A stretch of 64,000 nt of DNA from Sphagnum compactum (GCA_965153455.1 OZ234494.1:7688001-7752000), one strand, 5' to 3'. Positions 24,401-44,061 are shown, counted from the stretch's first letter. Notes: generated from the sequence alone by a model not told the origin. Numbers and translations: made by a program.

Positions 24401-25757
24401 TAGAAACTTAGGTGAACATTGGATTACATTCCACTATTGGGATTTGGGTTGAGTTCATGATTTCACTCCCATCATCCTTGGGCCATATTCTCAACGATGA
24501 CATCTAATGGCCAAAGCTACATCTTTTTTCACTTAAGATTCAATAAGTTAGGTCATGGTTGCTCAATGTTATGTCTTTGTGTGTGTGTGTGTGGGGAATG
24601 TTTAAATGTTTATGTGTCCATTATCATGTATGCATGTGTGTTTGTGTGTGTGTAAGGTCTACATTATGTTTAAATGTATCAATCTTGCAATTTGTTGGGT
24701 CAACTTGTAAATTGTGAGTTAATCAAACCTTTATCCTTTTCTTTACTTGGGTCTATCTAGTTTCTTTTTCTTAAGTTTGTCCATTTTTATGGTTTCTTTT
24801 TTCATACTTAGTCTTTCTATCTCTTTGTGTTTTTCATCATTAGTATTTTTCTTAACTCTCTTTGCCTCTTTTGATTCTTTGTTCACTTATGTCTATCTTC
24901 CTTTGATTCTCTATTTGCCTTGGTTTGTTTTTATTATATTCTTTGTCTACTTGTATTTGTTTGCATTTGTGTGAAAATGAAGGCATCATAAGGTTATAGA
25001 CTATTTAAATGTAATCACATGAGTCAATCATTATATTGGAGCCAACCAATCAAAAGTAATCATTTTAGTGTGTTTTCTTAATGGAACAAAACCCATTGAT
25101 TTTTATACAAGGCCCAAAGGTTCTTGAATTTGAAAAACTGTGCCAAAACTAAAACGACAAGATTTAGAAATTTGAAGAATTGGGCTCAAACTTGCACTCA
25201 GACAACCTACAATCTTTTAAAAGCAACAAAATCAGGACTAGCATTTCTCTTTAAAGGGTAGAGAGACCAAAACTAGTCCATACAGATGTTGGATGAGTAC
25301 TTGCTTCCAAGGGTAAGAACCACAAATTCTGATCCCGATTGGTAAGAACCGAACTGGAACTGGGTCTGATTCTTAGAATTAGAATGACAATCGAAACCTG
25401 ATATTTTTATAAAAGAATTAGACCTAAAATAAGGTTTCAGTTCTATTTATGTGTGGAACTAGAACCAAGATTTTTGAAAACCAATGGTTTTGAAAAATAA
25501 AATGTGACACTGGCGTTAACAAGAGGTTCAAGGTTTAGTGACCGTTGACCACTGGTTCTCATCTGTGAGTTAGTAAGAACCGGACGACAATTGGAACCAG
25601 AACTGAATTTTTTTGAAAAAAGAACCAGACCCAAAACCACAATATCAGTTCGATTTATGTATGGAGCTAGAATTGAAACCAAGACAGTTCTAATTTATTT
25701 TCTGGAACCTGAGCCCCAGGGTGAACCCCTTTTACGGGGAGGGAGGCAACAGCCCCA

Positions 25758-28700
25758 TCAATCATTAGAAAAATTGAGAAAGTACAAGGGGGGGAGCAGG
25801 CGCCACGAAATGGCAGCCTCGCCCTCCCTAAAGATGTGGCCGTGAAGCCATTCAGCCTTAAAGGCAAGCTCAATGCTATTCTGATTGTCCTGAGTCCTAT
25901 TCTGGCTCGAAGATCTAATGGCCTTCCAGGAGGCCATGCCCACCTCCGCCGTAGCTTCCCACGACTGGAGCAAAACTCTTTTGAGGGAGTACTGGCCATC
26001 AAAGTGCCTTCGGCATCTTTCAGACCAGAGATAATAGAGCAGAAAGCTCCTAAGAATGTCGAGAGGTTGTCTCCGGTAGGAGAAGCCACCCGGGTGGTAG
26101 CGATGAAGGTCCGGGGGGTCGTCCTCTTCTTCGAACACGGTCTCCCTAAGGAGAACGAAGGGCCAGGTAATGGAGAGGCGATTGGGCGCCTCCCATTCGC
26201 CCCAGACGCTGAGGAATGCACTCCAAGCCTTTTGGGCCGGGGTGCATTCCATGAGGCAGTGTCGGGCAGATTCCTCGAGCCCCTGGTCGCAGCCTTTGCA
26301 GGGGGCCTGAATTCCCATGGTATGGAGCCAGGTGCCCACCGGCAGCCCGTTGTTGAGGGTCAGCCAGATGAGCGCTCCAACCTTGCGGGGACGTGCGTTG
26401 TGCCACATTCTGGCAACGATCTGGGCAACCGACGAATTGTGCAGGCCCAGGTCCTGGATGAAGGTGATGATGCTGGGGGAGTGATTTTTTTTCTGGCATT
26501 CTGGTACCCTCTGTTGGAGGAGTATCCAAAGAAGGGAGCGTCGCCCATGTTGCGCGTCGACTGCCAATGCCAATCCCCTGGGTCCCACAGGAGATCAGAG
26601 ATAAATCCAGACTCAAAAATCCAATAGATTGGTGATTTCTTACCTGGCAGGAGTAGATCCTTGGCGAGCCTGAGCGTGGCTCCATGGCCGTCTTGGGCGA
26701 GGACCCTGACAGGCTCGTACCCCTCAAGGGGGATGATGGTGCTGTGTGAGCTCGTAGCTTGAACTCGGCCAGCGCTGGACGATCTTCTGAACTCCTTGGC
26801 ACTGGCAGTGGTAAGGTTTGTATCAGTGATCTGATACACCCACTCCGGTGGGGCAGTCTGGTCAGCTTCCTTCTTGCTGACCCAATCCCCCACGAGAGGT
26901 TTACTGTTCGAGGTGGCCGGGTCCCAGGGGATACTGGCAACGATGAGGTCCCTGTTTAGTCTATTGCTGGCGTGGCAGCACATTCCGAGAGCTGAGAGGT
27001 CTTTCCAAGTTTTCGTCTCTGAGTCCCAGAAGTCGCCAACCCTGGAGTAGCCAGCGCTCGCGAGAGCGTTGCCCTCACTCCTGCCACTAAGACCTAAGGG
27101 TCTGCTGTCCTGGTTTGTTATGAGAGGATTGCCAAACACCGATTGTCTGAGCACTTCGGCAGCGTTGGTCGGCTCCGACTTGCATAAACCCGGTCTGACA
27201 TTCATCCAAGCACTAAGGATGCTCTTCCACAGAGAGGTCGACGGTCTCTTGAGCTTAGTGGCTGCAAACAGCCAATTGATGTCTTGCGTGGTTGGGCCCA
27301 GCCCGTGTACCGGAAGCATAGCTTGATTGGCCTTATGCCTCAGGAGCTCCTTCCAGGGCTCTCTTCCCGGTTCAAGACCCCTGACGAGAAGCTTTGCTAA
27401 AAGAGCCTCGGACTGGGTTTTTGGGTCAATGATCCCAAGTCCTCCCTGCGAGGTCGGGAGGACGAGGGTCTCCCACTTGACCTTGGCTCTCGCGTTAGAG
27501 GCTTTTCCGCTCCAAATAAAGTTCCTCATTACACCTCGGACCTAGCAGCACATCCTGGGGTTCGGGTTCCAGGAGGCCGCCAAGTACCACATGGAGGCGA
27601 GGAGTACCTGGTTCGCCACCAGGATTCTCCTGGCTAGTGAGAGGCGGCAAGTACTCCAGTTTATTAGCTTGCTTTTGAGGGCGGACAACAACTTGTCGAA
27701 GTTGGCTTCAGGGCGGAGATGGAATCCCACCTGGATTCCCAGATATCTTATCCCTTTGCCTTCCGGGATCCATTGGAGTCCCACTTCCTGGCCCCACTCC
27801 CACTCTTTGCTTTTTTTGTTGGCCCAGATCGCGGCCGTCTTGTGCCAGTTTATTTTTGCTCCCGACGCTCTACAGAAGATGTCCAGGACTTTTTGCGTCC
27901 TTTCCATGTTCTCGCGCGTTCCTTGCAGGTAGAGTGCGGTGTCGTCCGCAAAAGTTTGGTCCGTTATTTTTCCTCCTCCCGGGAGAGCCAGACCTTTTAC
28001 TCCGAAACGGTGGTCATCGAGCATGTGCCCGAGGACGTCCGTTGCCAGAATGAAGAGATAGGGTGAGAGCGGGCACCCCTGTCTCATTGATCTGCCGAGT
28101 GGGAAGGTGCTCCCCTCCACTCCATTTAGCTTGATGGCCGACGAGGCTGACTTGTATAGCGAGCTCACCCACCGGATCCATTGTGGGCAGAACCCGAGCT
28201 TTGCCAGGGCTTCAAAGAGGAAACTCCACTCGATCCTATCGAAGGCCTTCTCAAAGTCCAGGAGTAAGACGACTAAGTCCTGGTTGCTCTCCTCTGCCCA
28301 GTCCTGGGCTTCTTGTGCCAGGAAGGTGTTGTCGAGAATGCACCTCCCCTCTACAAAGCCAGTCTGGCTGGGCCTTATTATACCCGGGAGAAAGGTCTGA
28401 AGCCGCTTGGCTAGTGTTTTGGCCAAGATCTTGTATAAACTGCCCAGCAGAGTGATTGGGCGCCAGTTTCCAATTCTGGCATGATCTCCAGATTTGGGGA
28501 TCATAATGATGAGCCCTTTGTTGATCAGCTCTGAGGTTTCCCTGGTTCTGAGCATCGCTGAGAACGCTTGGAGCAATGTTGGAGAAACTTCACTCATGAA
28601 TTCCTGAAAGAATTCCGTCAGGATGCCGTCGCATCCTGGCGCTTTGTCCTTTGGCATCGCCAGGATGGCCTCCTGGATCTCCTTCAGGGTGAGCTTTTGA

Positions 28701-30115
28701 GTCAGCTCCTTGTTTGTTTCGTTAGAGACCCGAGTCGGGGTGCTGGCCCAACAAACCTTTCGGGCTTCGTGGGTGCCGGGGGCGTTTGCCTCCGAGGTGT
28801 AAAGGTGCGTGTAAAAGGAGCGAATGTAGTGGGCCAGGTCCTCCTGGCCTCTGACCTCTCCGTCTTCGGTTGACAGCTCCTTTAGGAGTGTTCTTTTCCT
28901 TCCAATTCGGTGGAAGTCGAAGAAGCGCTTTGAGCACGTGTCACCATACCTGAACCAGGTGGCGGCGCTGAGTTGGTGGTTTCGCACCACTTGCTCTTGC
29001 AGGGAGTCCGTTAGGTGGCCCTGTGCCACTGAGAGGATGTCTCGGACGGGCTCGTCTTCCGGGTTGCTCTGCAATTGGATCTCCGCCAGGCGAATTTTGT
29101 GTTGCAGTTCTCTGATTCAAGTCCCTTTTGCTCGTCTCGTCTCTTTCACTAGTCTGCCATTGCAAATGAGTACCCTGCTGGTGGCTGCCTCCAACCAGTC
29201 GGGCCAGTCTGTATCAAGGCTGGGTGGAGGTTGGGTGCCTCTCCATGCCTCTAGGAGGGCAGTTCTGCTCCTGTCCTCTTTCAGCAGGGCTGTATCAAAG
29301 TACGTGGCAGTAGTGGGCGGAGCGGAGGAGCGCCCCCAGATCGTTATGATGAGGGGGGAGTGATCGGATATTTTCCTCATGGATGGGGCAGCTTCTATTC
29401 TTCCTCCCCTGGCATCTAGTTCTTGTGAGACAAGGAACTTGTCGATCCTGGAGACAGCCGACCCCTGGCCCTTCCTCCCATTGTCAAAGGTGTACTCTTT
29501 TTTTGACATTTTCCTGAAGCTGTCCAGGGTCCAGGCGTCTATGAGGCCATACTGTAAGGTTAGGTGGTGCCAGGAGGCTGCCTCTCTTCTATGCATCCTC
29601 CTTGGCCCTGCCTCACCTCTGACCTCCTCCTCTTCCATGTGGTTGAAGTCACCGCCAATGATGACATGGTCTGCTGTGAAATTGGCCTCCCCGATTTTTT
29701 TCCACAGAGTGGCTCTGTCTCTGGATGCCCTCGGTGCATAAGTGTTGATGATGGACAGCTCAGTGCTGTCGGGGAGGTGGAGGGTCAAGTATTGTGCCCT
29801 TCCCTCTGTTATGATCCCGTCTTCCTTGATGAGTGGAGCCGTCATCCTGTCCATCAGGATGGCGGTCCCGGCACTGGTGCGCTGGGAATTCCCCATTGGA
29901 ATTCCGGGGTTCCAGAAGGCTCCCCCTTGCCAGAACTCCAGCCCTTTCGTTGAGTTGGTTACCCCTTGCTCGTCCAGGTGGTGTTCCTGGATGAGTAGTA
30001 TCTGGGGCGGGTTTTGGAGGGAGGACAACCAAGTCTTGATAAGCTTCTGTTTGGTCGAGTTCCTCCCTAGTCCTCTAACGTTGAGGGAGACGATTGTGAG
30101 AGGTCGTTCAGACAT
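25758..30115 (-). pseudogene. LINE ORF2 (~1450 codons): APE endonuclease, reverse transcriptase, C-terminal zf-RVT
   Basis: APE motifs SLNVRGL, LIQEHH, GGDFN, SRIDKF, ISDHSP. RT motifs KAPGCDG, NWRPITLL, DFEKAFDRI, RQGCPLSPYLF, FADD, YLGI. C-terminal CKGC..EESARHCLMEC. Broken by in-frame TGA (29117-29119), TAG (27542-27544) and a frameshift in an A8 run (26485-26492). Confidence 0.95.
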
Positions 30116-33012
30116 GTGTTGGGAGCGCTAGGGCGGCCTGCTGGCCGATCGATCCCAATCCTTCATATTCGCTTTGAAGAGAGGTTGCCAGGTCCTGAGG
30201 CGCCAGCGCTAAGAGGTCGAACTTAATGGTTTGAGCGGACTCTTGATCTCCCTGACCGGTGACCTCCACGGTCTGTGGGGCCTGGAAGAGGCCTGCTGAG
30301 TTCGAGGGCACCAGGGTCAAGAGGTCGAGCTTGATGTACCTCTTCTTTTTTCTGGCCGCTTGTGGAGATGCCAGTAAACTAGCGGACACGCTTTTGCGCG
30401 TTTGACGATCCGTGCATGCGGGACCAGTCTTCAGCAGAAGGCTGTGTGCCGGGCCTGCGAAGACCACATCATTGTTCATGCTCGGCATAGATTCAAGCGT
30501 CCTCCAGTGGAGGTTCTTTCTTTTTTGTGCACTGATGCCACTGAGGCCAGTGCTGATGTGGGCTAGGATCGTGCATTCCCAGCCTCCCTGGGCATGGTCT
30601 TCTTGCCAGCTCCATTCCAAGGCGAGGCGCCCCTTGAGGCTTAGACTGAATCTGAGAATCTTTCCCTCGAGCTCAGTCTCGACGTTCCTGGATAGGTCCT
30701 CAAGGGCGGACGCCGGAGTCCATTCCTCTTCAGGTGCACTCATGCATCTGATGTGGAGTGGGAGGTTTGGCGGGTCGTTGCTTTTTACGTTGACCAGAAT
30801 CTCCTTCTGGTTATCCCTCTCCCTGGACAGGACCGGCCAAACTTTTGCTCTGGCATGTTCTTGTCCCGGGGGGACCGGGATGCCCAGCGAGGTAAAGAAG
30901 GAGTTGTGAACCTCTGAGCGGGTTCTCTTCCTTCTGCTTCTTGGCGTGCAGTCCTGTGTTGGGACGTGGGTTGGAGAATGGTGCTGCATACTTGGCCGAG
31001 GTGGGGTCTGTTTCGGGTCGAATCTCTTGCGACCTTGGAAGGACCAGCCCTCTTTCAAATCCTCCTGCGTTTCCATTAGAGACTCGGCTCCTGCGTTGTC
31101 ATCTCCTAGAATAGCGAAAGGGTTGGACTGAGCGGCTGGGTCCGGGGCCGAAGAGCTGGCCGGCTCTTGAATTCCAAAATTTGGTGTGTAATTCCGGATG
31201 GCGTCCAGTTTTTGTCGCCCTTCTTCTAGGAGTTCCACACAGGTCTTGGCTTCGCTGTCGGGCTGGGCTGACAGCTCAGAAGCTTCCTTCATTTCTTAAT
31301 CGGATTCCGATGTCCCTGAAGTGGCCTTCGGGCATCGATTCCGTGTTGCTGCCTCTGTGTTGGGCGGAATTGCGGAGGTACTAGTGATGTTTCTCTGAGC
31401 AGGGTGATCCGCGTGTTTGCTATCTTCCTTTTGGTTCTGAGTCACCTTGGTTAGCTCTTGATTCCTCCTCCCCTTTTGGGTTTGGGTTTGGAGTCGTTTG
31501 CTGGCCTGGGCTTGGTTCGGCTGGGGAATTCCTCCCCCCCTGGCTCCTTTCCTTCTGATCTCTTGGAGTTTGTGGGCGGATATGCTGGCGCCCCCTCCCA
31601 CGGTTTGCTCCTATTGATCGTGCAGGCCCGTGCATGATGGCCGAACCTCCTGCACTTTCTGCACTGGTTTGGCAGGCCGGAATACAAGATTCTTTGTGCC
31701 ACAGTGTCGCTGGGCTTTGATCCTTCCGCCATGGACGGAATTCGAATGAATCCGGGTAGCTTGGAGATATTCGTGAGCTCGATGGTGATCATGGGCCCCG
31801 TTGGCCTTTTGATGTAGGAGTCTTCAGCTTCTATCTCCAGGACTTCCCCGATTTTACTCGCCATGATCGTCAGGGCCCTTGTGTTCCTGAACTGCTCGTG
31901 CAGATCAGGGAATTGGACCTTGATCGCGTGTGTGAGTTGGGCTTCTGCCCCCTGCGAGCTTGAGTTGAAATTTGGGATGTAGCGAGAGAAGGAGAGGCCT
32001 AGGCCGCTCCATTCGACTGCTGCCAGTCTTCTGGTGGCCTTGGCCCCTTCCTCGTTCTCGAATAGTATTTCGAAGTATCCTCTTGTGAGGAGGGATACTG
32101 AGTTGAAAGGGGCCGGGAGATGGAGCTTGAGGCAGTCGAGCAGCGCTTTGAATGTTGCTCTGCCTCCAAGCGTTCTACCGATAACAGTTCTTCTCGCTTT
32201 CTTCGCCGCGCTTTCTTGCATCTCTACCACTAAGTCTATTGGAAAATCCGCCTCTATTTCCATGCTGTAATCTATTGGCGATGGGCCTTGGCCGCTTCCC
32301 CCTCAGGGGAAGCGGCACCTGTCCCGCTGCCTGGTTGCACGATCAGAGAATGGGGCGAGGGGGCGTTCACTGAGCTTGTCGCATTCTTTCGCAATGAGTT
32401 CCACACTCTCGGCGCTTTTGCCCTGGCCTCGGAGAGGTCGATCCTCTCCGATTGCCTGGCAGCGGCGATGTCCGAGCCCTCCGAGCTTCTTCCATGACCA
32501 ACAGATACAGAATGGACTTCTGACTTGCGGGGATGGGAAGAATCTCCTTTCGGAGGTACCTGATGGGTGTACGATCCGCCCGCACCTTCGATCTCGCTCT
32601 CCCGAGGCTTCGACGCGACGTCCAACGGAGCGATGAGCGTTGATGACCGTTGAGGAGCTTCTCCTCGAGGTCCGCCATAGCTCCTGGGTTGAAGAGCTTT
32701 CGCCTCCTTTCCTTGCTGCTGGAGTTTTGAACGATCCTGGGAGGCGATCGAAGTCGCCTGGTTCGAGCCTGCATTTCCTCCTTCCTTGCCGATCTCCTCT
32801 CCCAGAGTAGAGGCAATCAGCTTGGTTGAAGTTGCGCCGAGCTTGGGCGATGCAAAATCCAAAGAGCCGTTGGCAGTCAATGAACACTTTCTGTCCGTTG
32901 GGGAGGAAGCGTGAGCGCCACGCCCCGCTTTCCTTATCCTTCGGGAGACCTGAACGAATTCATCGAGCCCCGTGGTCTGAGGATCTGCAGTAGCAGAGCA
33001 GATTTCCATCAT
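30108..33012 (-). pseudogene. LINE ORF1 (~970 codons reconstructed): DUF4283/RRM-like region and CX2CX4HX4C zinc knuckle, with long low-complexity flanks
   Basis: Four pieces: 33012-32272, 32263-31451 (VIGRTLGGR..LTRGYFEILF..SKIGEVLEIE..YSGLPNQCRKCRRFGHHARAC), 31601-31296 and 31292-30108. They join by frameshifts in a G5 run (~32298-32302) and a G7 run (31534-31540), plus an in-frame TAA (31296-31298). The stop overlaps the ORF2 start (ATGtcTGA). Confidence 0.82.
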
Positions 33013-33379
33013 TAGAATGTGGAAGCGCTTAAGAATTGACTAAAAAAAGTAGCAATCGGACAACAAGATCATGGTTCTCTCTGATACGTGTCCAGGCAGA
33101 GAGCTCCCATCGCCCTCCTCCCTCAGCTATCACAGGGTGAACCCCTTTTCCTCACCTGAGCCCCAGGGTCTTCATAAAAGTAAAGAACCACCAAACACTG
33201 GTCTGGACCCATATATCCCAGGTTTAAAAATAGATTTCTTCACTATCTGTATTTAATGTGGTCAGATATGGAGCTTAATGGCGTATTTGCATTATCACGA
33301 CATCTCCAGAGTCCATATCGTGTTTTCTTAAAGGGTAAGTTTGAACCCCGTGCCTAATGCACAGGTGTGTTATTTCAAC

Positions 33380-34170
33380 AATGTTTGGTTCATGTTTTAG
33401 TTTTTTTTTTAAAACTTTTATCTTTTTTATTTTTTATTTTTATGTGTTTTCTGTTTTTATTATTTTTTGTATAATAAAAATAAAGTGTTTCTTTTTCACT
33501 TTTGTATTTTTGTTTATTTGGATGCAAGTTTGAAGTTTGGAGAAAGAAGACACACCTCATTCTTTTTCAAGTAGGGTTTTTTTTCATTATTATAAGTTTT
33601 ATTTTTTCTTATTTTCTACTCTTTATTTGGTTTCTTCTTATTTGTATTTTTTTTTCTTTTAAAATGATTTTACTGTATTTCCCTTTCCTTGTTTCATTTG
33701 TTTCCATTCCTTTTTTATAGTTTTTATGTTTTACTTTTTTTTTGTTTATGTTTGTTTCATGTTTTAAATTTTTCTATCTTTATTTTGTCTATCTTCATTT
33801 CTTTTCTATTTTTATGCGTTTATTTATTATTTAGTTTTTATTTTCTTTTCCAAAACAATTCTAGTTTTTCTAATATGTTTTATAATAAAAATTATTTTTG
33901 TTTGAGTAGATGCAGGTTTGAAGTTTGAGAAAAGAAGACAAACCTTTTTTTTTTTTCAAGTATGGTTTTTTTTCTCTTTCTTTTGCTCTCTGTTTTGTTT
34001 CTTATTTTTTGTCATCTATTTTTTAATTTTCTTTTAAGATTATTTTACGGTATTTTCCTTTTTTGTTTCATGTTTAAGTGTTAACAAAAAGTTTCTAATT
34101 GTTAAAGTGTTTTTCTGTTTTTATTTTTTTTCTAGTTTTTTCTCTTTTTAAATATATATTTGTTCTGTTT
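33380..34170. repeat. T-rich low-complexity tract containing a duplicated ~40-bp core
   Basis: GATGCA(A/G)GTTTGAAGTTTG..AAAGAAGACA.ACCT occurs at ~33521 and ~33908 within poly-T-rich sequence. Confidence 0.6.
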
Positions 34171-36155: not shown

Positions 36156-37354
36156 TCTCATCGTTGGAGACTCCAACTGCGATTCCCGTGTTTTGCGTGT
36201 TTTTTTCTCCTTTCGAAAGCGCACACACTCCAAACACCCTTCAACGCGGATTCTCTCCCTTCCGCTGTCTATTTACACAGTTTGATTGATCGTCGAAAGT
36301 GTGGTTTGATCATTAGCGCTCACACTTGATTAAATTTTTTGTTTACCATCTGCTGAAAAATCGCATCGCAATTCTCTTCATGCAGGTGTTGTCACATGAG
36401 CACTTGAAAGAAAATCGGACTTTTTGTTTGGTTTGGTTTGTTTTCGCACTACCAGGATCGAGATCCCCTTGTGCTCATTGTCATCTGGTATGCGAAATCT
36501 CTTGTTGCTCTCATTTGCATGCGCCAGAATAATTGACATGCGATTTTATTAGTTATCATGTGAACGATATTGTGCTCGTCTGGTCGAATCTGTGAGCTTC
36601 GTAATTTTTTTGCTTGAGATTTTTTGGAGGAGTGGGTTGCCGAATGGTCGTGCTCGCTGCATGCGTCGTTTTCAATTGCTGCTCTTGTTTTCGAACGAAA
36701 GATCCACTGAAATAGTTTCCGTCGGGGTGTCTGTGAAGTTCGCGCAGTTGGAGATTATATGTTACAATCTTTTGTTAGGCGATTGTTTGTTTGTTTTTTG
36801 CTTTTTTGAGTTCTCCGTTTGACTTCTGAGAGCGTTTTGTTTGTTTGTTTTTTCTTTTCTTCTTTCTTTGTGGGGAGAGGCGGGGGTTTCGTTTGATTTA
36901 AAGATGCACTCGCCGTCTATTTGTTACTTGCCCAGGTTTCAAGAAAACGCACACGGTCGTGAACGAATTTCGTGTCTAAGAACCAGCCGCTGATTTTTCC
37001 AGGGGACTTCGCAGCAGTAAATTCTTACGGTTTTGCACACAAGGTATGTGTATTTTTTTCCCGCTTTGTTAGAAGCTTATTGCATTCTCCACATCCGAGA
37101 AGCTGGAGGCAGTAGAGCATCAAGGGTCATGAAGTTCATGATGCTATAGGTAGATATGGTGTATTTTTGTCTTTGTAGTCGTACAAAACACAATTCTTTG
37201 AGGGTTTTTCTTCTGTGGTCACTGCAGACAACCAACAACACCTCAGTGCCTTTCTGCCTGCAGAAGGAAACACTTGTTCCATCCATCCAGCAAGATAGTA
37301 GTGATTCATACAGTTCTGGACTGCTGCATCAAGTAACCAAAAGAAGCAATCTTG

Positions 37355-38548
37355 ATGGGAGACAGGTACAATGACAATGCTTATGACCCTTCACCATATC
37401 AAAAGGGATCCACTCAACCTCCTCTGTATGGACCAGCTGCAGCCACTAGTAATTTAAGTGGTAGAACATTGTATCCACCTTCCCACAATGTCAATGGGGA
37501 GACTGTGCCTTTTGGTGGAGCACGTCCTGTACAAAATGAGTCTGATTATGGTCAGGGCACTGTTCAAAGCTATGGCAGATCTGCTCATGGCAAAGGTAGC
37601 TATGGACAGCTGAGACCAAGCTATGGAATACAAGGTGGTGATTCTCAATCAACACCAAGCTATGGAGGAGCTCCAGAGCCACCTCCACCATATGGTGGTG
37701 GCTCAGGACTTCAGCCTCCTCTGCCATATGTAACTCTTCCAGACTCAGCTGGACATGAGTCAGCTGAACTCCAATCAGGATATGGTGGAGAATCACACCC
37801 TCTAAAGCCTTATCTGCCATACGGGATCCAAGAACCTGAACTTGGACAGGCAAATCCTGAGCTTGGGTACAGTGGAGGGAGAGGGTTACAGCCACCCCCA
37901 TATGAGAATCAAGAAGCAGGCCGTGGTGGTGGTAAACCTCAACTTCCACAGGCATATCCACCATATGGGATTCAACATCCTAACAAGGACAGCTTCTCCT
38001 CAGGAAGTCTTGGACAAGGCAGGGGTGGTGGTGGTAGTGGTAGCCAGTTAGCTCCTGCAGAAGATCCTTATGGAAGAGGTTATGGCAGAGCCCAGGATGG
38101 CTTCTCTTCAGGAGGTCTTGGAAGAGGCAGGGGTGGTGGTGCTAGTGGTAGCCAGTTAGCTCCTGCAGAAGAACCTTATAGAAGAGGTTATGGCAGAGCC
38201 CAGGACGGCTTCTCCTCAGGGGGTCTTGGAAGAGGCAGGGGCAGTGGTGGTGGTGATAGCCAGTTAGCTTCTGCAGAAGATCCTTATGGAAGAAGTTATG
38301 GCAGAGGTCAGAACCCTGCCGAGTATGCACCAATCAGACCATCGAGCTTTGAGGAGGAGGAGGTGCCACCTGCACCCATCAGCTCTGAAGTAGCCCGTGA
38401 AACCTATTCAAGTGTTTTTGCTGATCCTGTCTATGGAGGTGCTAGAGATTACAACCCAGAGGGAGGTTACAGTGAGGAGCCAGAGTCTTCCAGATTGGCA
38501 CATTACCAGCAAGATCTCCATCGCCAGAATGACTTGAAGAAGCTCTAG
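37355..38548 (+). CDS. Gly/Pro/Tyr/Ser/Gln-rich, RGG-containing predicted intrinsically disordered protein (397 aa), function unknown
   Basis: Uninterrupted ORF, first ATG at 37355. Probable 5' UTR introns lie upstream (GT ~36487/AG 36935; GT 37044/AG 37227 or 37263). The protein has many YG/PY motifs and three 36-aa repeats, with no signal peptide or globular domain recognised. Confidence 0.8.
   Translation: MGDRYNDNAYDPSPYQKGSTQPPLYGPAAATSNLSGRTLYPPSHNVNGETVPFGGARPVQNESDYGQGTVQSYGRSAHGKGSYGQLRPSYGIQGGDSQSTPSYGGAPEPPPPYGGGSGLQPPLPYVTLPDSAGHESAELQSGYGGESHPLKPYLPYGIQEPELGQANPELGYSGGRGLQPPPYENQEAGRGGGKPQLPQAYPPYGIQHPNKDSFSSGSLGQGRGGGGSGSQLAPAEDPYGRGYGRAQDGFSSGGLGRGRGGGASGSQLAPAEEPYRRGYGRAQDGFSSGGLGRGRGSGGGDSQLASAEDPYGRSYGRGQNPAEYAPIRPSSFEEEEVPPAPISSEVARETYSSVFADPVYGGARDYNPEGGYSEEPESSRLAHYQQDLHRQNDLKKL
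37994..38317 (+). repeat. Coding tandem repeat, 3 x 108 bp (36 aa)
   Basis: Units start at 37994, 38102 and 38210, with consensus FSSGGLGRGRGGG.SGSQLAPAEDPYGRGYGRAQDG. Confidence 0.95.
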
Positions 38549-39980: not shown

Positions 39981-42900
39981 TTACTGTGAGACACCCAACC
40001 ATTTTGTAAAATTCTCAAACTCTGTGTATTCACTGTCTGAAACCATAGTCTTGTACCAGGCAGACCCTGCCTTCTTTGCCAGTTCCTTGTCCTCTGGCTG
40101 TAAAACCGCAGAAATAAAGTCAAAGTCAGGAAAAAAACGCAACTGTCTTTGATACATCAGATAGTCATACATAGATTTGATCTTTCAAGCCTTGAGATGG
40201 TAAGCAGCTCACTCACTGCCCCTCCACCATAATTGCATTTGCATCAAGGCAGTTGTAATAATGGGTCTAGTCTCTAAGTCCTTTTATACTGGTCTCCTTA
40301 CCTTCAAATCTTTAGACCCATGCAGTCCATGCAAAGTATGGGGTTGTAGCAAACTGGGAAAACCAATTGGCCCACTCTACTTTGCATGATGAAGCTAGCA
40401 GATGCAAAGGGATTGTCTATGCATAACGGGCCAGATAACAAGCAACAGATTTCCCAATTTTCAAGCATTGAGAGGATATGGATGATCCCCTGAGATCATC
40501 CATAACTGTCCATATACAGTATGAGTAAGACCAAACAGAGAACATTCTACACAAGAAAAAAGAACTTGCTATTCTCTGCTTATTACTCTGCTTCATATGT
40601 AGTTTGGTCCATGCAAAGTATGGGGTTGTAGCAAACTGGGAAAACCAATTGGCCCACTCTACTTTGCATGATGAAGCTAGCAGATGCAAAGGGATTGTCT
40701 ATGCATAACGGGCCAGATAACAAGCAACAGATTTCCCAATTTTCAAGCATTGAGAGGATATGGATGATCCCCTGAGATCATCCATAACTGTCCATATACA
40801 GTATGAGTAAGACCAAACAGAGAACATTCTACACAAGAAAAAAGAACTTGCTATTCTCTGCTTATTACTCTGCTTCATATGTAGTTTGGACATGTGCATT
40901 GCCCATCAAATCTAGGTTGACCTATATGGGCAAAATAGATCTTTAATTGAATGTGATCATGTCCAATGGGGCAAATCCACTGGCACCTAGGCTCTCACTG
41001 TGTGAGAAGTGACTCGACTAGGATTGTCATCTTCTGACACATCTTATTATGGACTTGAATCAAGTCACTTTAATAGATGACCTTGAGTAACATGAACAAT
41101 GCTACAAACTACAGTGCCCTACCATGCCTGCAGTTTTCACAATTTGCCTATGACAGATATGCACTAAACTTTGCCAAAAGTGCAATCATCATCTTTCAAA
41201 ATGATTTTTTTTCATAACTAGGTATGTACCCTATATGCACATATGCTAAACCCCGACAAAGCACTGAGTTTGGCAGTCTCTGACTTACAAGCACAATCTT
41301 TTGTGGAAACCTCCAGTCAACTTCTTAAAATACCAGCACCCATTGCTATGTGTAGCCACTATCCAGGTCCTACTTTTTCCAACACCTGATTTACATATGG
41401 AAAGTATCGACATGCCAGATGTGACCATGAAAATTCTGACACATTTGGTGAAAAGTAACAAGAAGAGTAACAAGGCTTGTCCAGTGAGTGACCATCTCTG
41501 AAATGATGAGGGATAAAGATTGAATTTTTTTACCTTAGCAGTCTTTCTCTTGATATCAAGCTTTTCAGCCTTTGCCTTTGCCCACTGTTCCTGGGCCAAA
41601 AGCTCCATCCTCCTTGCAGTCTTTGCATATGGGTTAAGTTTTAGAAGAGCCCCCAGATTCTTCAATGGGTTCTTTTTCAATGCCCATCTCTTGATCTCCA
41701 CCTTTTTGGGTTGGACAACACTCTGGATCTCATCTGAATTGATGATTCTCGCCAGATCAGGGTTGCCCATGATGGGTCGGGGAAGCATATAATTCTTCTT
41801 CACAATTGACCTCTTCTCATGGGTGCCAAAGATAGCATCTAACTGCTCAAAGGCAGACTTTGTCCAAACAATGAATCAACCAAGATGACCTCCTGGAAGA
41901 GACCACAAAGACATCATCCACACATGAGTATCAAAGTTGCAATGTGGTAGACCAATCCCTTCCATCAAAGTCTAACTTGATGGTGCTACAAGGAGGATCA
42001 ATAAGAAAACAGGTGGACCACCTCAAAAGTTCGCAAGAAACAGCTTGAGGCATCCACAAGCAAGTTCTCTAGCCTCCAACCAAGGTGTAAGAAGCTCCAA
42101 AAAGTTACTTCCTAACATTCTGCCAAACACTAAAAAAATACTTCTTTTCACTTCTGAGGGAAAAAAAAGAGCATGACTTTTGAACCCCCCACAAACTGAT
42201 GATTCCATTTTTTCAGCTGTGCTTTATCTGCAAAGTTCTCTCCTGCCTACAAAGGCTCTGGTAATGATGATCTTCTAGCAATGCCTGGTTAGGTCAAGAT
42301 GTTCCCATGTTCATCTGGAATTCCCAGATACTTTATGAAGAAAAGTGGGGCTACTGAGAAAAATTTGCCGTTATCGGGGTCTGCATATAGTTGCGAACAA
42401 TCTTTCCTTTAGGACTTGTCACACCCAACAGAAGGGCATTCCTAGGAAATGCCCTTTCAACACATTCAAGACGAGAGAAAAACTCACCAGGAGCCAGCTG
42501 AAGCAGATTCAAGCGCTGCACGGAAACGATCTCCACACCGGGGACATTCCTGAAAGACTTAATAAGCTTCGCACCCTCGGAATCATACACAACGAGAGGG
42601 CCTCGCCTATTCCTCATTTTTCCCTTACCGGCACGGATATTATGACTGGCCCTAACCTTCTCGACATCTTCGTAAGCTCCAATTCTCTTCAGCAGCTTGA
42701 CTGCAGCAGACGTCTTCTCAATGGCCTCCACAGAGTCTTCTAGAACCAGAGGTATCTCTGGAACCTTTACGATGCGGTGGCCTCTAGCGAGAACCAAGGA
42801 AGGAATAGCAGAGGCTGCCAATGCAGACGCAATAGCGTACCTTTTCTGGTTCAGATTCACCTTCCGGTGCCATCGCCGCCAGATCTTGGTCGGAGAGAAC

Positions 42901-43088
42901 ATCCGACCTCCTCGGCACATATTTCCGAACGCTCCCTGACCTGCACGGTGCGTACCACCGCCTGGAACCCTAGGAATACGCGATACAGCTCTCCCGGTAT
43001 CCCATGACTCCGCAGATGTCTGGTGTCCCGCTTTCGTACTCACGGCATAGGGTTGCCTCTTGTTCTTTGCAAGAGACGTGTGCACAGA
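39981..43088 (-). pseudogene. RPL4: 60S ribosomal protein L4 (uL4) unprocessed, 5'-truncated pseudogene
   Basis: Exons 43088-42488 ([50 protein letters not shown]), 41892-41534 ([21 protein letters not shown]) and 40097-39981 ([25 protein letters not shown]), joined by GT-AG introns. Lesions: in-frame TGA at 41876-41878, SWGTG>SWDTG, a ~5-aa deletion at KMRNRR|GPL, and no exon for the N-terminal ~40 aa upstream of the acceptor at 43089-43090. Confidence 0.88.
40325..40888. repeat. Apparently perfect 282-bp tandem duplication in the last RPL4 intron
   Basis: Copy 1 is 40325-40606 and copy 2 is 40607-40888. I found no mismatch by eye, and the ORF track shows identical peptides offset by 282. 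Confidence 0.95.
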
Positions 43089-44061
43089 CTGCACAAAACA
43101 AAGTGGAAGAACCGCCCAAAAACATAGAAGATCACGCGCTGAGGTGGAAAAAAGCGCTCCAAGAATGACCCACCCCTTAAGGTGTTCCTATGATGGTTAT
43201 TTTCCAATTTTTTTTTGTAAATAATTGCTTGATTATTCCCTTAAAATAACAAATTTAGTTGAATTTACACTAGGAGTAAAAATCCAAAAACATATTTGTG
43301 GCAACATACAAAATTTATCAATAAAAAAACACTGGTTAGTATACTTGTGATCTCAAACTTCCTGGAATACTTCTTTTTCAATTGTTGCTGGTATGAACAT
43401 GCCATAAGGGGCAGAGCCTTGAGAAGTGTGAAGGCAGTGAGAAGCTTGTTAAGAATTGTTCACTGATTAAGTTTATTTGTTTATAGGTTTCAAGTTAGAA
43501 TGGAATTGTCCAATGATTAAGTATACTTGCCTATCAGTTTGGGGTACAATGCTGATATCTCCTACCCTTGCTACCAGTATCGATACCAGTTTTGATACTA
43601 AGGTGCCTGCCAATATACAAGGCCAACACTGGTCTATCACCTAATACATATACAATTGGAAGACTTCACATATTTACAGCATCATTCACCTAGTCTTTCA
43701 AGTTTGTGAACTGGACTCACATCAGATAAACACAAAGACACTCATGTGTGGATGCGGTAAACAAAAACACATTGTGAAAACCCTATGTGAGAAGATAACA
43801 AACCTCACAGGTGTGAAGCATGACAAAAGCCGTCTGCACCATCATTTTTATCATTGTTCTCTTACTATGTACAGCAATGTGGATTGCTATCTCATTATCT
43901 GAGGAATCAGGCACCACAATCACCTCACAGTTGCAGACATCAAAGGAATTAATAATGCCTCGTTCAAACATGACACAAGTAGTTCTTACTGAAGTGAACA
44001 GAAGACAGCCCAGACACAAAGAATAAGCCTGAATCTACTGAAAACTATGTTCTATTCTTCT

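Follow-up and report, generated by a model that had tools for sequence, protein, structure and literature searches.

The stretch analysed here, hereafter the window, comprises 64,000 nt of Sphagnum compactum (GCA_965153455.1 OZ234494.1:7688001-7752000) and carries on its minus strand a long interspersed nuclear element (LINE), which is one decayed copy of a multicopy moss LINE family that is prone to 5' truncation and that, as judged from its predicted proteins, belongs to the L1 clade. The family ends at a fixed base without a poly(A) tail, and this tailless fixed 3' end is a trait of the family. In the window, the 17-mer that forms the 3' end occurs a second time near the 5' end, within an extension that is most likely private to this copy. 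We propose, with a probability of roughly 0.45, that the 5' 17-mer is the trace of a template switch in which the reverse transcriptase (RT) moved onto the 3' terminus of another RNA of the element. The positions of the features are collected in Table 1.

Boundaries of the element and the repeated 17-mer

Read in the sense of the element, the 5' side passes from the flank through the 16-mer of the target-site duplication (TSD), GAGG and the 17-mer into TGATAGC, and the 3' side passes from CCCCGT through the 17-mer into the flank, where both an A-run and a microsatellite are absent. The 17-mer (AAAAGGGGTTCACCCTG) occurs in the 64-kb window in two exact copies, both on the minus strand, and two or more matches were reached in 0 of 100 shuffles, even with 2 mismatches allowed; the 16-mer (ACCCTGGGGCTCAGGT) also has two exact copies, a count reached by none of its own 100 shuffles. 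On its 3' side the 17-mer shares 6 nt (ACCCTG, 25717-25722) with the TSD, and either the duplication measures 16 bp, with the element giving just 11 of the 17 nt of its 3' 17-mer, or the duplication measures 10 bp. Within the window blastn detected no second copy of the LINE, and no further 13-nt core of the 3' end was present beyond one site with 2 mismatches, at chance level. A comparison of the 5'-terminal 54 nt with the remainder of the LINE likewise gave the 17-mer as their sole repeat. An 8-nt inverted match between the 5' and 3' ends (GAGGGAGG and CCTCCCTC), considered as a possible panhandle, was judged to be purine-run noise.

The comparison with the family draws on public sequencing runs, 20 of which, from 6 coded organisms, hold part of the stretch. 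Runs X1 and X9 (the latter from organism B) were compared as assembled contigs with their depth, X21 consists of raw DNA reads and X22 of poly(A)-selected RNA; X1 may be the sample from which the window was assembled. Results on contig joints rest on 15 listed joints of 59. The 3' junction is present in an X1 contig of 2501 nt that spans 25400-25746 with 0 differences, and the 5' junction is covered by none of the contig or read rows listed. The insertion boundaries are supported by a joint of ~25707 to ~33169 in contigs of two species. Furthermore, a peptide search with a 67-aa antisense frame across the 5' junction retrieved a peptide of 55 aa from 3 contigs (P0001) that leads from the 3' flank through one TSD unit into the 5' flank, without the LINE, GAGG or the 17-mer. 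The idea that the 17-mer was already present in the target before insertion is ruled out by this empty-site peptide, which lacks it.

Joints of 25459-25479 to 33165-33173 are found in several to many contigs from two species, and loose ends occur at 33165 in 20 X9 contigs; it follows from these joints and loose ends that the LINE entered a host sequence of repetitive nature and that the empty sites are paralogous. We could also observe that the LINE is nested in another repeat (25459-25706 and 33170-33202), within which one joint, 25459 to 25683, skips 223 nt and suggests host-repeat units of ~224 nt, and loose ends place a boundary at 33201/33202.

A family with a fixed 3' end

The word depth in X1 rises to 3193 in the last bin of the element (25669-25937), as against 187-1057 over the element body, and the contig that covers the unique 3' flank and the junction has a depth of 47.1; among the X21 reads, depth is ~3 in the flank and 3.5-42 in the element. 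The depths of these two runs therefore indicate ~10 or more copies, with 3' ends several times more numerous, and the profile is the usual 5'-truncation pattern of a LINE family. Very short 3' copies (44, 54 and about 90 nt) occur as well and attest to frequent early stops of the RT.

Six independent 3' ends could be compared, namely those of the window, of a copy in X22, of the metagenome loci L013, L024 and L090, and of P0002, a peptide that is the antisense reading of a further family 3' end. An A-run is found in none of the six. In particular, ...CACCCTG is the terminus in five of them, with the three metagenome loci ending at the same base as the window copy, and P0002 departs 3 nt earlier. 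The X22 copy is 44 nt long; its loose ends, at 25717 in 20 reads and at 25760 in 18, bear one and the same 13-nt duplication. The copy in L090 measures 54 nt and is flanked by duplications of 12 nt. The 3' end contains an internal A-run of 2-4 nt followed by 13 fixed bases, and ~59% of the X1 depth lacks 2 nt at 25730-25733. Metagenomes were scanned with a 16-mer query, which returned at least 117 loci, 3 of these 117 being LINE 3' ends.

Conservation is concentrated in the last 55 nt, over which the window agrees with L024 at 50 of 55 positions, compared with 229 of 362 upstream, and with L013 and L090 at 51 and 50 of 55 positions, respectively; an alignment of four sequences is nearly invariant over this terminal region. 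Two small hairpins are predicted by RNAalifold, the terminal one within the 17-mer. All 11 predicted pairs are invariant in the four sequences (0 with covariation), and the RNA fold z-score of the last 84 nt is -2.55. Moreover, in all three copies with clear duplications the target and the element end overlap, by ACCCTG in the window and by CTG in both L090 and the X22 copy. Site-specific insertion is ruled out, the three duplications having the CTG overlap alone in common. On the evidence of these sequences, the family fits an L1 of the stringent type, which would recognise its own 3' end and prime on a few target-complementary bases.

A scan of the window detected no short interspersed nuclear element (SINE) that shares the 3' tail. 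At 25735, three X9 contigs have a variant end instead of the last 18 nt, with the antisense consensus AGGGGGGGAACCCCATG, and organism B may have a sub-family whose terminal sequence differs. The X22 reads cover 25669-26744; among them is a 44-nt fragment carried within another transcript, so that some copies, at least, are expressed as passengers.

An earlier note on this stretch had described an L1-type LINE without a tail, bearing a 17-mer at both ends and flanked by a 16-bp TSD. This description is borne out on each count: the 17-mer has exactly two copies (0 of 100 shuffles), the TSD is present in two exact copies and is matched by an empty-site paralogue, the L1 type is upheld by the predicted endonuclease, RVT_1 and zf-RVT domains, and the lack of a tail extends across the family (A-run in 0 of 6 3' ends).

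The 5' extension and the origin of the second 17-mer

Beyond ~33114, the window copy seems to part from its relatives. One X9 contig (record 15) aligns to 33114 and then continues with 99 letters unlike the window. At 33066, the full X1 depth of 562.9 lies in two contigs whose letter differs from that of the window and whose from_end count is 49; in X9, two such contigs have from_end counts of 49 at 33066 and 236 at 32879, which fits records 15 and 16, whose depths are 12 and 21.5 (33.5 in sum). Among the X21 reads at 33066, 11 of 13 come from other copies. Copies that reach the 5' region thus look as if they lose their resemblance to the window at ~33114 in two species, and the 5' 17-mer is most likely a private feature of the window copy, or of a small lineage, and not a family-wide one.

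The searches for a second 5' junction of this kind, made with no positive control, detected none. The 17-mer followed by TGATAGC in a LINE context is found in 0 of the 117 listed metagenome loci, 3 of them LINE ends, and a 21-mer of the 5' untranslated region has 0 matches in the metagenomes. No second 17-mer/TGATAGC junction was detected in genome contigs, by a search that had no positive control. Among the peptide proxies of the 5' junction, the 67-aa antisense frame matched P0001 alone and a sense 40-aa frame over the junction returned no candidates; as neither search had a positive control from the 5' untranslated region of other copies, these two results carry no weight as to absence. Two metagenome loci, L055 and L095, resemble the 5'-type junction over 24 nt with 1 mismatch; being GC rich and otherwise dissimilar, they were taken for bacterial chance matches.

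We suggest the following course of events for the insertion. The element RNA would carry no A-tail and would end in the fixed, conserved 3' region of ~55 nt, with a small predicted hairpin in its last 17 nt. The nicked strand of the target would pair with 3-6 nt at the very end of this RNA (...CUG) and in this way prime reverse transcription, which may often abort within the first ~50-100 nt. In the case of the window copy, the RT would have come to the end of one RNA, moved over to the 3' terminus of another RNA of the element and copied the last 17 nt of the latter, its terminal hairpin, before it stopped; the end of the complementary DNA (cDNA) would then have been attached to the upstream target, with GAGG as 4 additional nt. 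If the RT jumped onto an RNA 3' end, the piece gained at the 5' side should end exactly at the terminal G of the family, and this is where the 5' 17-mer ends.

Several points weigh against such a switch, or against the private extension on which it builds. A clean jump predicts a 17-mer placed directly at the canonical 5' end, but 17-18 nt (TGATAGC...) intervene, and the stop after exactly 17 nt of the second template lacks an explanation. The boundary at 33114/5 depends on the inferred meaning of the from_end count and on one listed contig, and a variable purine run at ~33114 could also break contigs. In X9, moreover, 36.6 of the depth of 70.1 at 33066 has the letter of the window, and a sub-lineage that shares the extension may exist there. 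Finally, no 5' junctions of other full-length copies are found among the listed contig ends.

The intervening 17-18 nt are what a read-in, or 5' transduction, accounts for and a clean template jump does not. Here a distance of 17 nt would have separated the source copy from the 3' end of a second, possibly truncated, copy upstream of it, transcription would have begun inside that upstream 3' end, and the RNA would have carried the 17-mer with a 17-nt spacer ahead of the normal 5' end; the outcome would resemble that known from the Drosophila element HeT-A, although accidental and confined to a single source locus. The 17-nt spacer is close to the duplication lengths of the family, 13-16 nt. 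Short 3' fragments are common, as shown by the copies of 44, 54 and ~90 nt and by the threefold depth excess in the last bin, and this abundance makes a full-length copy beside one of them plausible. However, no tandem source locus turned up, the 117 listed metagenome loci (3 LINE ends) include none with TGATAGC after the 16-mer in a LINE context, and the model requires either that transcription started precisely on the initial A of the 17-mer or that unrelated extra bases (GAGG) were acquired. We therefore consider a read-in, as a one-off, unlikely, although worth keeping in view. Two successive insertions appear less likely still. According to this scheme, a 5'-truncated mini-copy of 21 nt, made of GAGG and the last 17 nt, inserted with the 16-bp duplication, and a full-length RNA, its 3' end paired with the mini-copy, later inserted into the latter, so that the 17-mer serves both as target duplication of the second event and as element end. 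The final sequence is fully compatible with this order of events; the overlap of 3-6 nt in three of three copies supports priming by base-pairing of the target with the end of the RNA in this family, very short copies exist, and 17 nt is near the family duplications of 13-16 nt. Yet two independent hits at one base pair are required, and the bottom-strand nick would lie to the left of AAAA, whereas the three informative copies overlap at the terminal CTG and not at an internal position. Furthermore, no intermediate allele is found among the 15 listed joints of 59, and the empty-site paralogue shows just the state that preceded both events.

The template switch, the read-in, the second insertion and an artefact each make the 5' 17-mer a one-off, whereas a heritable copy does not. 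R2 proteins use separate 5' and 3' RNA segments, and a heritable, functional 5' hairpin, belonging to the whole family or to an active sub-lineage, might offer the RT protein a second place to dock, at the 5' end of the RNA, or might let the RT copy end to end and form head-to-tail arrays. In its favour, the repeat corresponds exactly to the conserved terminal hairpin with its A-run, the two 17-mers are identical at 17 of 17 positions, and about half of the X9 depth at 33066 (36.6 of 70.1) has the window's letter, which is what leaves room for such a sub-lineage. However, the X1 contigs at 33066 (562.9) and record 15 of X9 lose their match at ~33114, and no second junction was found in the 117 listed metagenome loci, in the genome contigs or in the two peptide searches. 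Identity at 17 of 17 positions is, moreover, expected anyway at a divergence as low as the perfect 16/16 duplication indicates. A heritable copy is therefore, in our opinion, improbable to a degree that places it below both the read-in and the two successive insertions. As for an artefact of assembly at the 5' junction, or a chance repeat, the absence of that junction from the listed contig and read rows speaks in its favour, but chance is excluded by the 0 of 100 shuffles with two matches, the unit stands between perfect copies of a 16-bp duplication, both flanks are matched by the empty-site peptide, and the 3' junction lies in a 2501-nt contig with 0 differences; an origin of this sort is very hard to credit.

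The RT switch onto a second element RNA, which the earlier note had listed as one of three options, is hence the best fit. Its option of propagation from head-to-tail arrays or insertion of the family into itself is possible as a one-off, and that of a circular or concatenated RNA is unsupported; head-to-tail arrays are found neither among the 15 listed joints of 59 nor in the window, which holds one copy. The mini pseudo-long terminal repeat (LTR) of the same note is not supported as a feature of the family, given that the contigs of other copies appear to diverge at ~33114 in two species.

Coding content, related elements and significance

The predicted proteins place the element among the L1-clade LINEs. 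The assignment is based on the APE-type endonuclease, on the RT, whose nearest solved structures are those of human L1 ORF2p, aligned over 440 residues at E 2e-51, and, well behind it, R2 (1.4e-28), and on the zf-RVT domain. An ORF1 with a CCHC knuckle and a DUF4283-type domain marks plant L1s. In the first open reading frame (ORF1) of the window copy, the motif C-x2-C-x4-H-x4-C is seen in the translation, and the DUF4283 match (E 0.0015, 18.7 bits) lies under the Pfam cut-off of 27.2. The 395-codon open frame that separates ORF1 from the endonuclease either extends ORF2 at its N terminus or represents an additional ORF. Of the endonuclease families, GIY-YIG included, Pfam reported none but EEP for the ORFs, and Rfam over the element gave 0 matches at E <= 1. 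Viral contigs had no match to the ORF1 N terminus or to the RT, and genome contigs had none to the junction 20-mer or to ORF1.

The window copy is dead, being disrupted by stops and frameshifts. Near 32289 and 26485 it shows one-base differences from most other copies: an extra G behind 32289 is present in 639.7 of 1005.8 of the X1 depth, and other copies have an extra G behind 26485/26487. The first base of the in-frame stop that precedes the RT is 29119, where all X1 depth, which comes from other copies, reads another letter, and the 27541/27542 boundary holds a further stop. In X1, one contig, whose depth of 118.6 corresponds to about 2-3 copies, brings 28992 and 32917 together with 2 letters in the joint; it represents an internally deleted derivative of the LINE, present in more than one copy, from which most of ORF1 and the endonuclease is gone.

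Outside the element, hundreds of reads break at 33338 and 33370, the ends of a 33-nt stretch (33338-33370), and the X1 word depth in the bin 33201-33450 is 66322, compared with 47.1 for the unique contig; the stretch probably forms the core of a short repeat of very high abundance. Elsewhere in the window, an uninterrupted frame of 278 codons on the minus strand (42351-43187) matches ribosomal protein L4/L1 (PF00573, E 8.3e-28), and a frame of 403 codons on the plus strand (37337-38548) matches no Pfam family.

Table 1. Features of the LINE copy and its ends, in window coordinates
Feature	Position	Strand	Description
LINE copy, TSD-bounded	25717..33153	-	7.4 kb; 5' end GAGG at 33153-33150; 3' end G at 25717
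5' TSD copy, 16 bp, ACCCTGGGGCTCAGGT	33154..33169	-	Exact match
Private 5' extension, ~38-39 nt	33115..33153	-	GAGG, 17-mer and 17-18 nt; not common to the contigs of other copies
5' 17-mer, AAAAGGGGTTCACCCTG	33133..33149	-	4-nt spacer GAGG (33150-33153) before the 17-mer
ORF1	31451..33012	-	Split by frameshift near 32289; CCHC knuckle; weak DUF4283 match
395-codon open frame, ORF1-endonuclease interval	30108..31295	-	No Pfam family
APE-type (EEP) endonuclease	29117..30127	-	PF03372, E 2e-08; directly upstream of RT
Reverse transcriptase	27542..29116	-	RVT_1, E 1.7e-39; preceded by in-frame stop
ORF2 C-terminal part	25758..27541	-	zf-RVT PF13966, E 9.9e-12 (cut-off passed); frameshift near 26485
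Conserved 3'-terminal 55 nt	25717..25771	-	Presumed RT recognition region
3'-terminal 17-mer	25717..25733	-	True 3' end of the family; holds predicted hairpin AGGG-GTTCA-CCCT
3' TSD copy, 16 bp	25707..25722	-	First 6 nt (25717-25722, ACCCTG) double as the last 6 nt of the element

Among plant L1s a poly(A) tail is usual, being found in 224 of 233 flowering-plant families, and families without a 3' repeat number 9 of 233 in flowering plants and 5 of 15 in green algae (Ohshima 2012; PMC3472496, Table 1). The same study describes, as the 'stringent' type, a lineage of plant L1s whose 3' end is conserved, with a divergence of 0.144 over the last 45 nt versus 0.570 overall, and mentions no moss, Physcomitrella, bryophyte or Selaginella (PMC3472496). 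Stringent L1s (the LINE1-1_ZM lineage and L1-1_CR) share with the moss family the L1-clade coding architecture, as predicted for the latter, a small predicted terminal hairpin and a short 3' end conserved far above the rest (50/55 versus 229/362 in the moss family). However, the maize lineage stands among families that mostly end in poly(A), whereas the moss family is tailless with a fixed end base.

In Drosophila, the 5' tags of HeT-A arise by read-in from an upstream element in head-to-tail arrays, from a promoter at the 3' end. As in the window copy, the 5' end of HeT-A bears the last bases of an element's 3' end; however, HeT-A tags are regular in telomeric arrays, whereas the moss element is dispersed with a TSD, arrays were not found in the data examined, and a tag of this type is not apparently common to other moss copies. 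The pseudo-LTRs of Penelope elements are terminal direct repeats that derive from tandem or partial tandem copies, and these elements encode a GIY-YIG endonuclease and a telomerase-like RT. By contrast, the moss element has a predicted APE endonuclease and an L1-like RT, and its repeat measures 17 nt and is known from one copy.

Template jumping by the RTs of non-LTR elements was reportedly described by Bibillo and Eickbush in 2004. A study of R2 proteins states that template jumping occurs in vitro, that these proteins jump from full-length cDNA onto further 3' UTR RNA molecules, and that in cells they leave 5' junctions with 'extra template' as well as head-to-tail products (PMC11371274). 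In R2 jumping, the extra piece at the 5' junction starts exactly at the RNA 3' terminus, as it would here. However, the moss copy would hold just 17 nt of the second template, 17-18 nt of unplaced sequence separate the 17-mer from the canonical 5' end, and its predicted enzyme is of the L1 type with an APE endonuclease. For Zorro3, a fungal member of the L1 clade, a further study reports that retrotransposition can join 5' and 3' ends and yield episomal circles (PMC3510499). These circles are extrachromosomal and come from a yeast assay, whereas the moss copy is a chromosomal insertion with a duplication and no sign of a circular template.

The suggestion that the locus exemplifies a distinct plant LINE end-processing system is not sustained, tailless L1 families having already been counted (PMC3472496). 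Tailless L1s of this kind are known in flowering plants and green algae, and the moss family adds a member to them. The 5' 17-mer is probably a natural illustration of R2-type template switching in vivo and not a new end-processing system. Should the 5' hairpin instead prove heritable, the family would represent a LINE with functional mini terminal repeats, and these would provide a simple analogue of the two RNA sites of R2 or a case of continuous end-to-end copying. For genome annotation, the family implies that tailless LINEs with fragments of 44-90 nt are easily missed or wrongly bounded. The moss family offers a clean bryophyte example of a non-poly(A) LINE with a fixed 3' end and the predicted make-up of the L1 clade, and its apparent priming on 3-6 target-complementary nt, together with its fixed end, would fit the stringent ancestral L1 of green plants proposed by Ohshima (PMC3472496).

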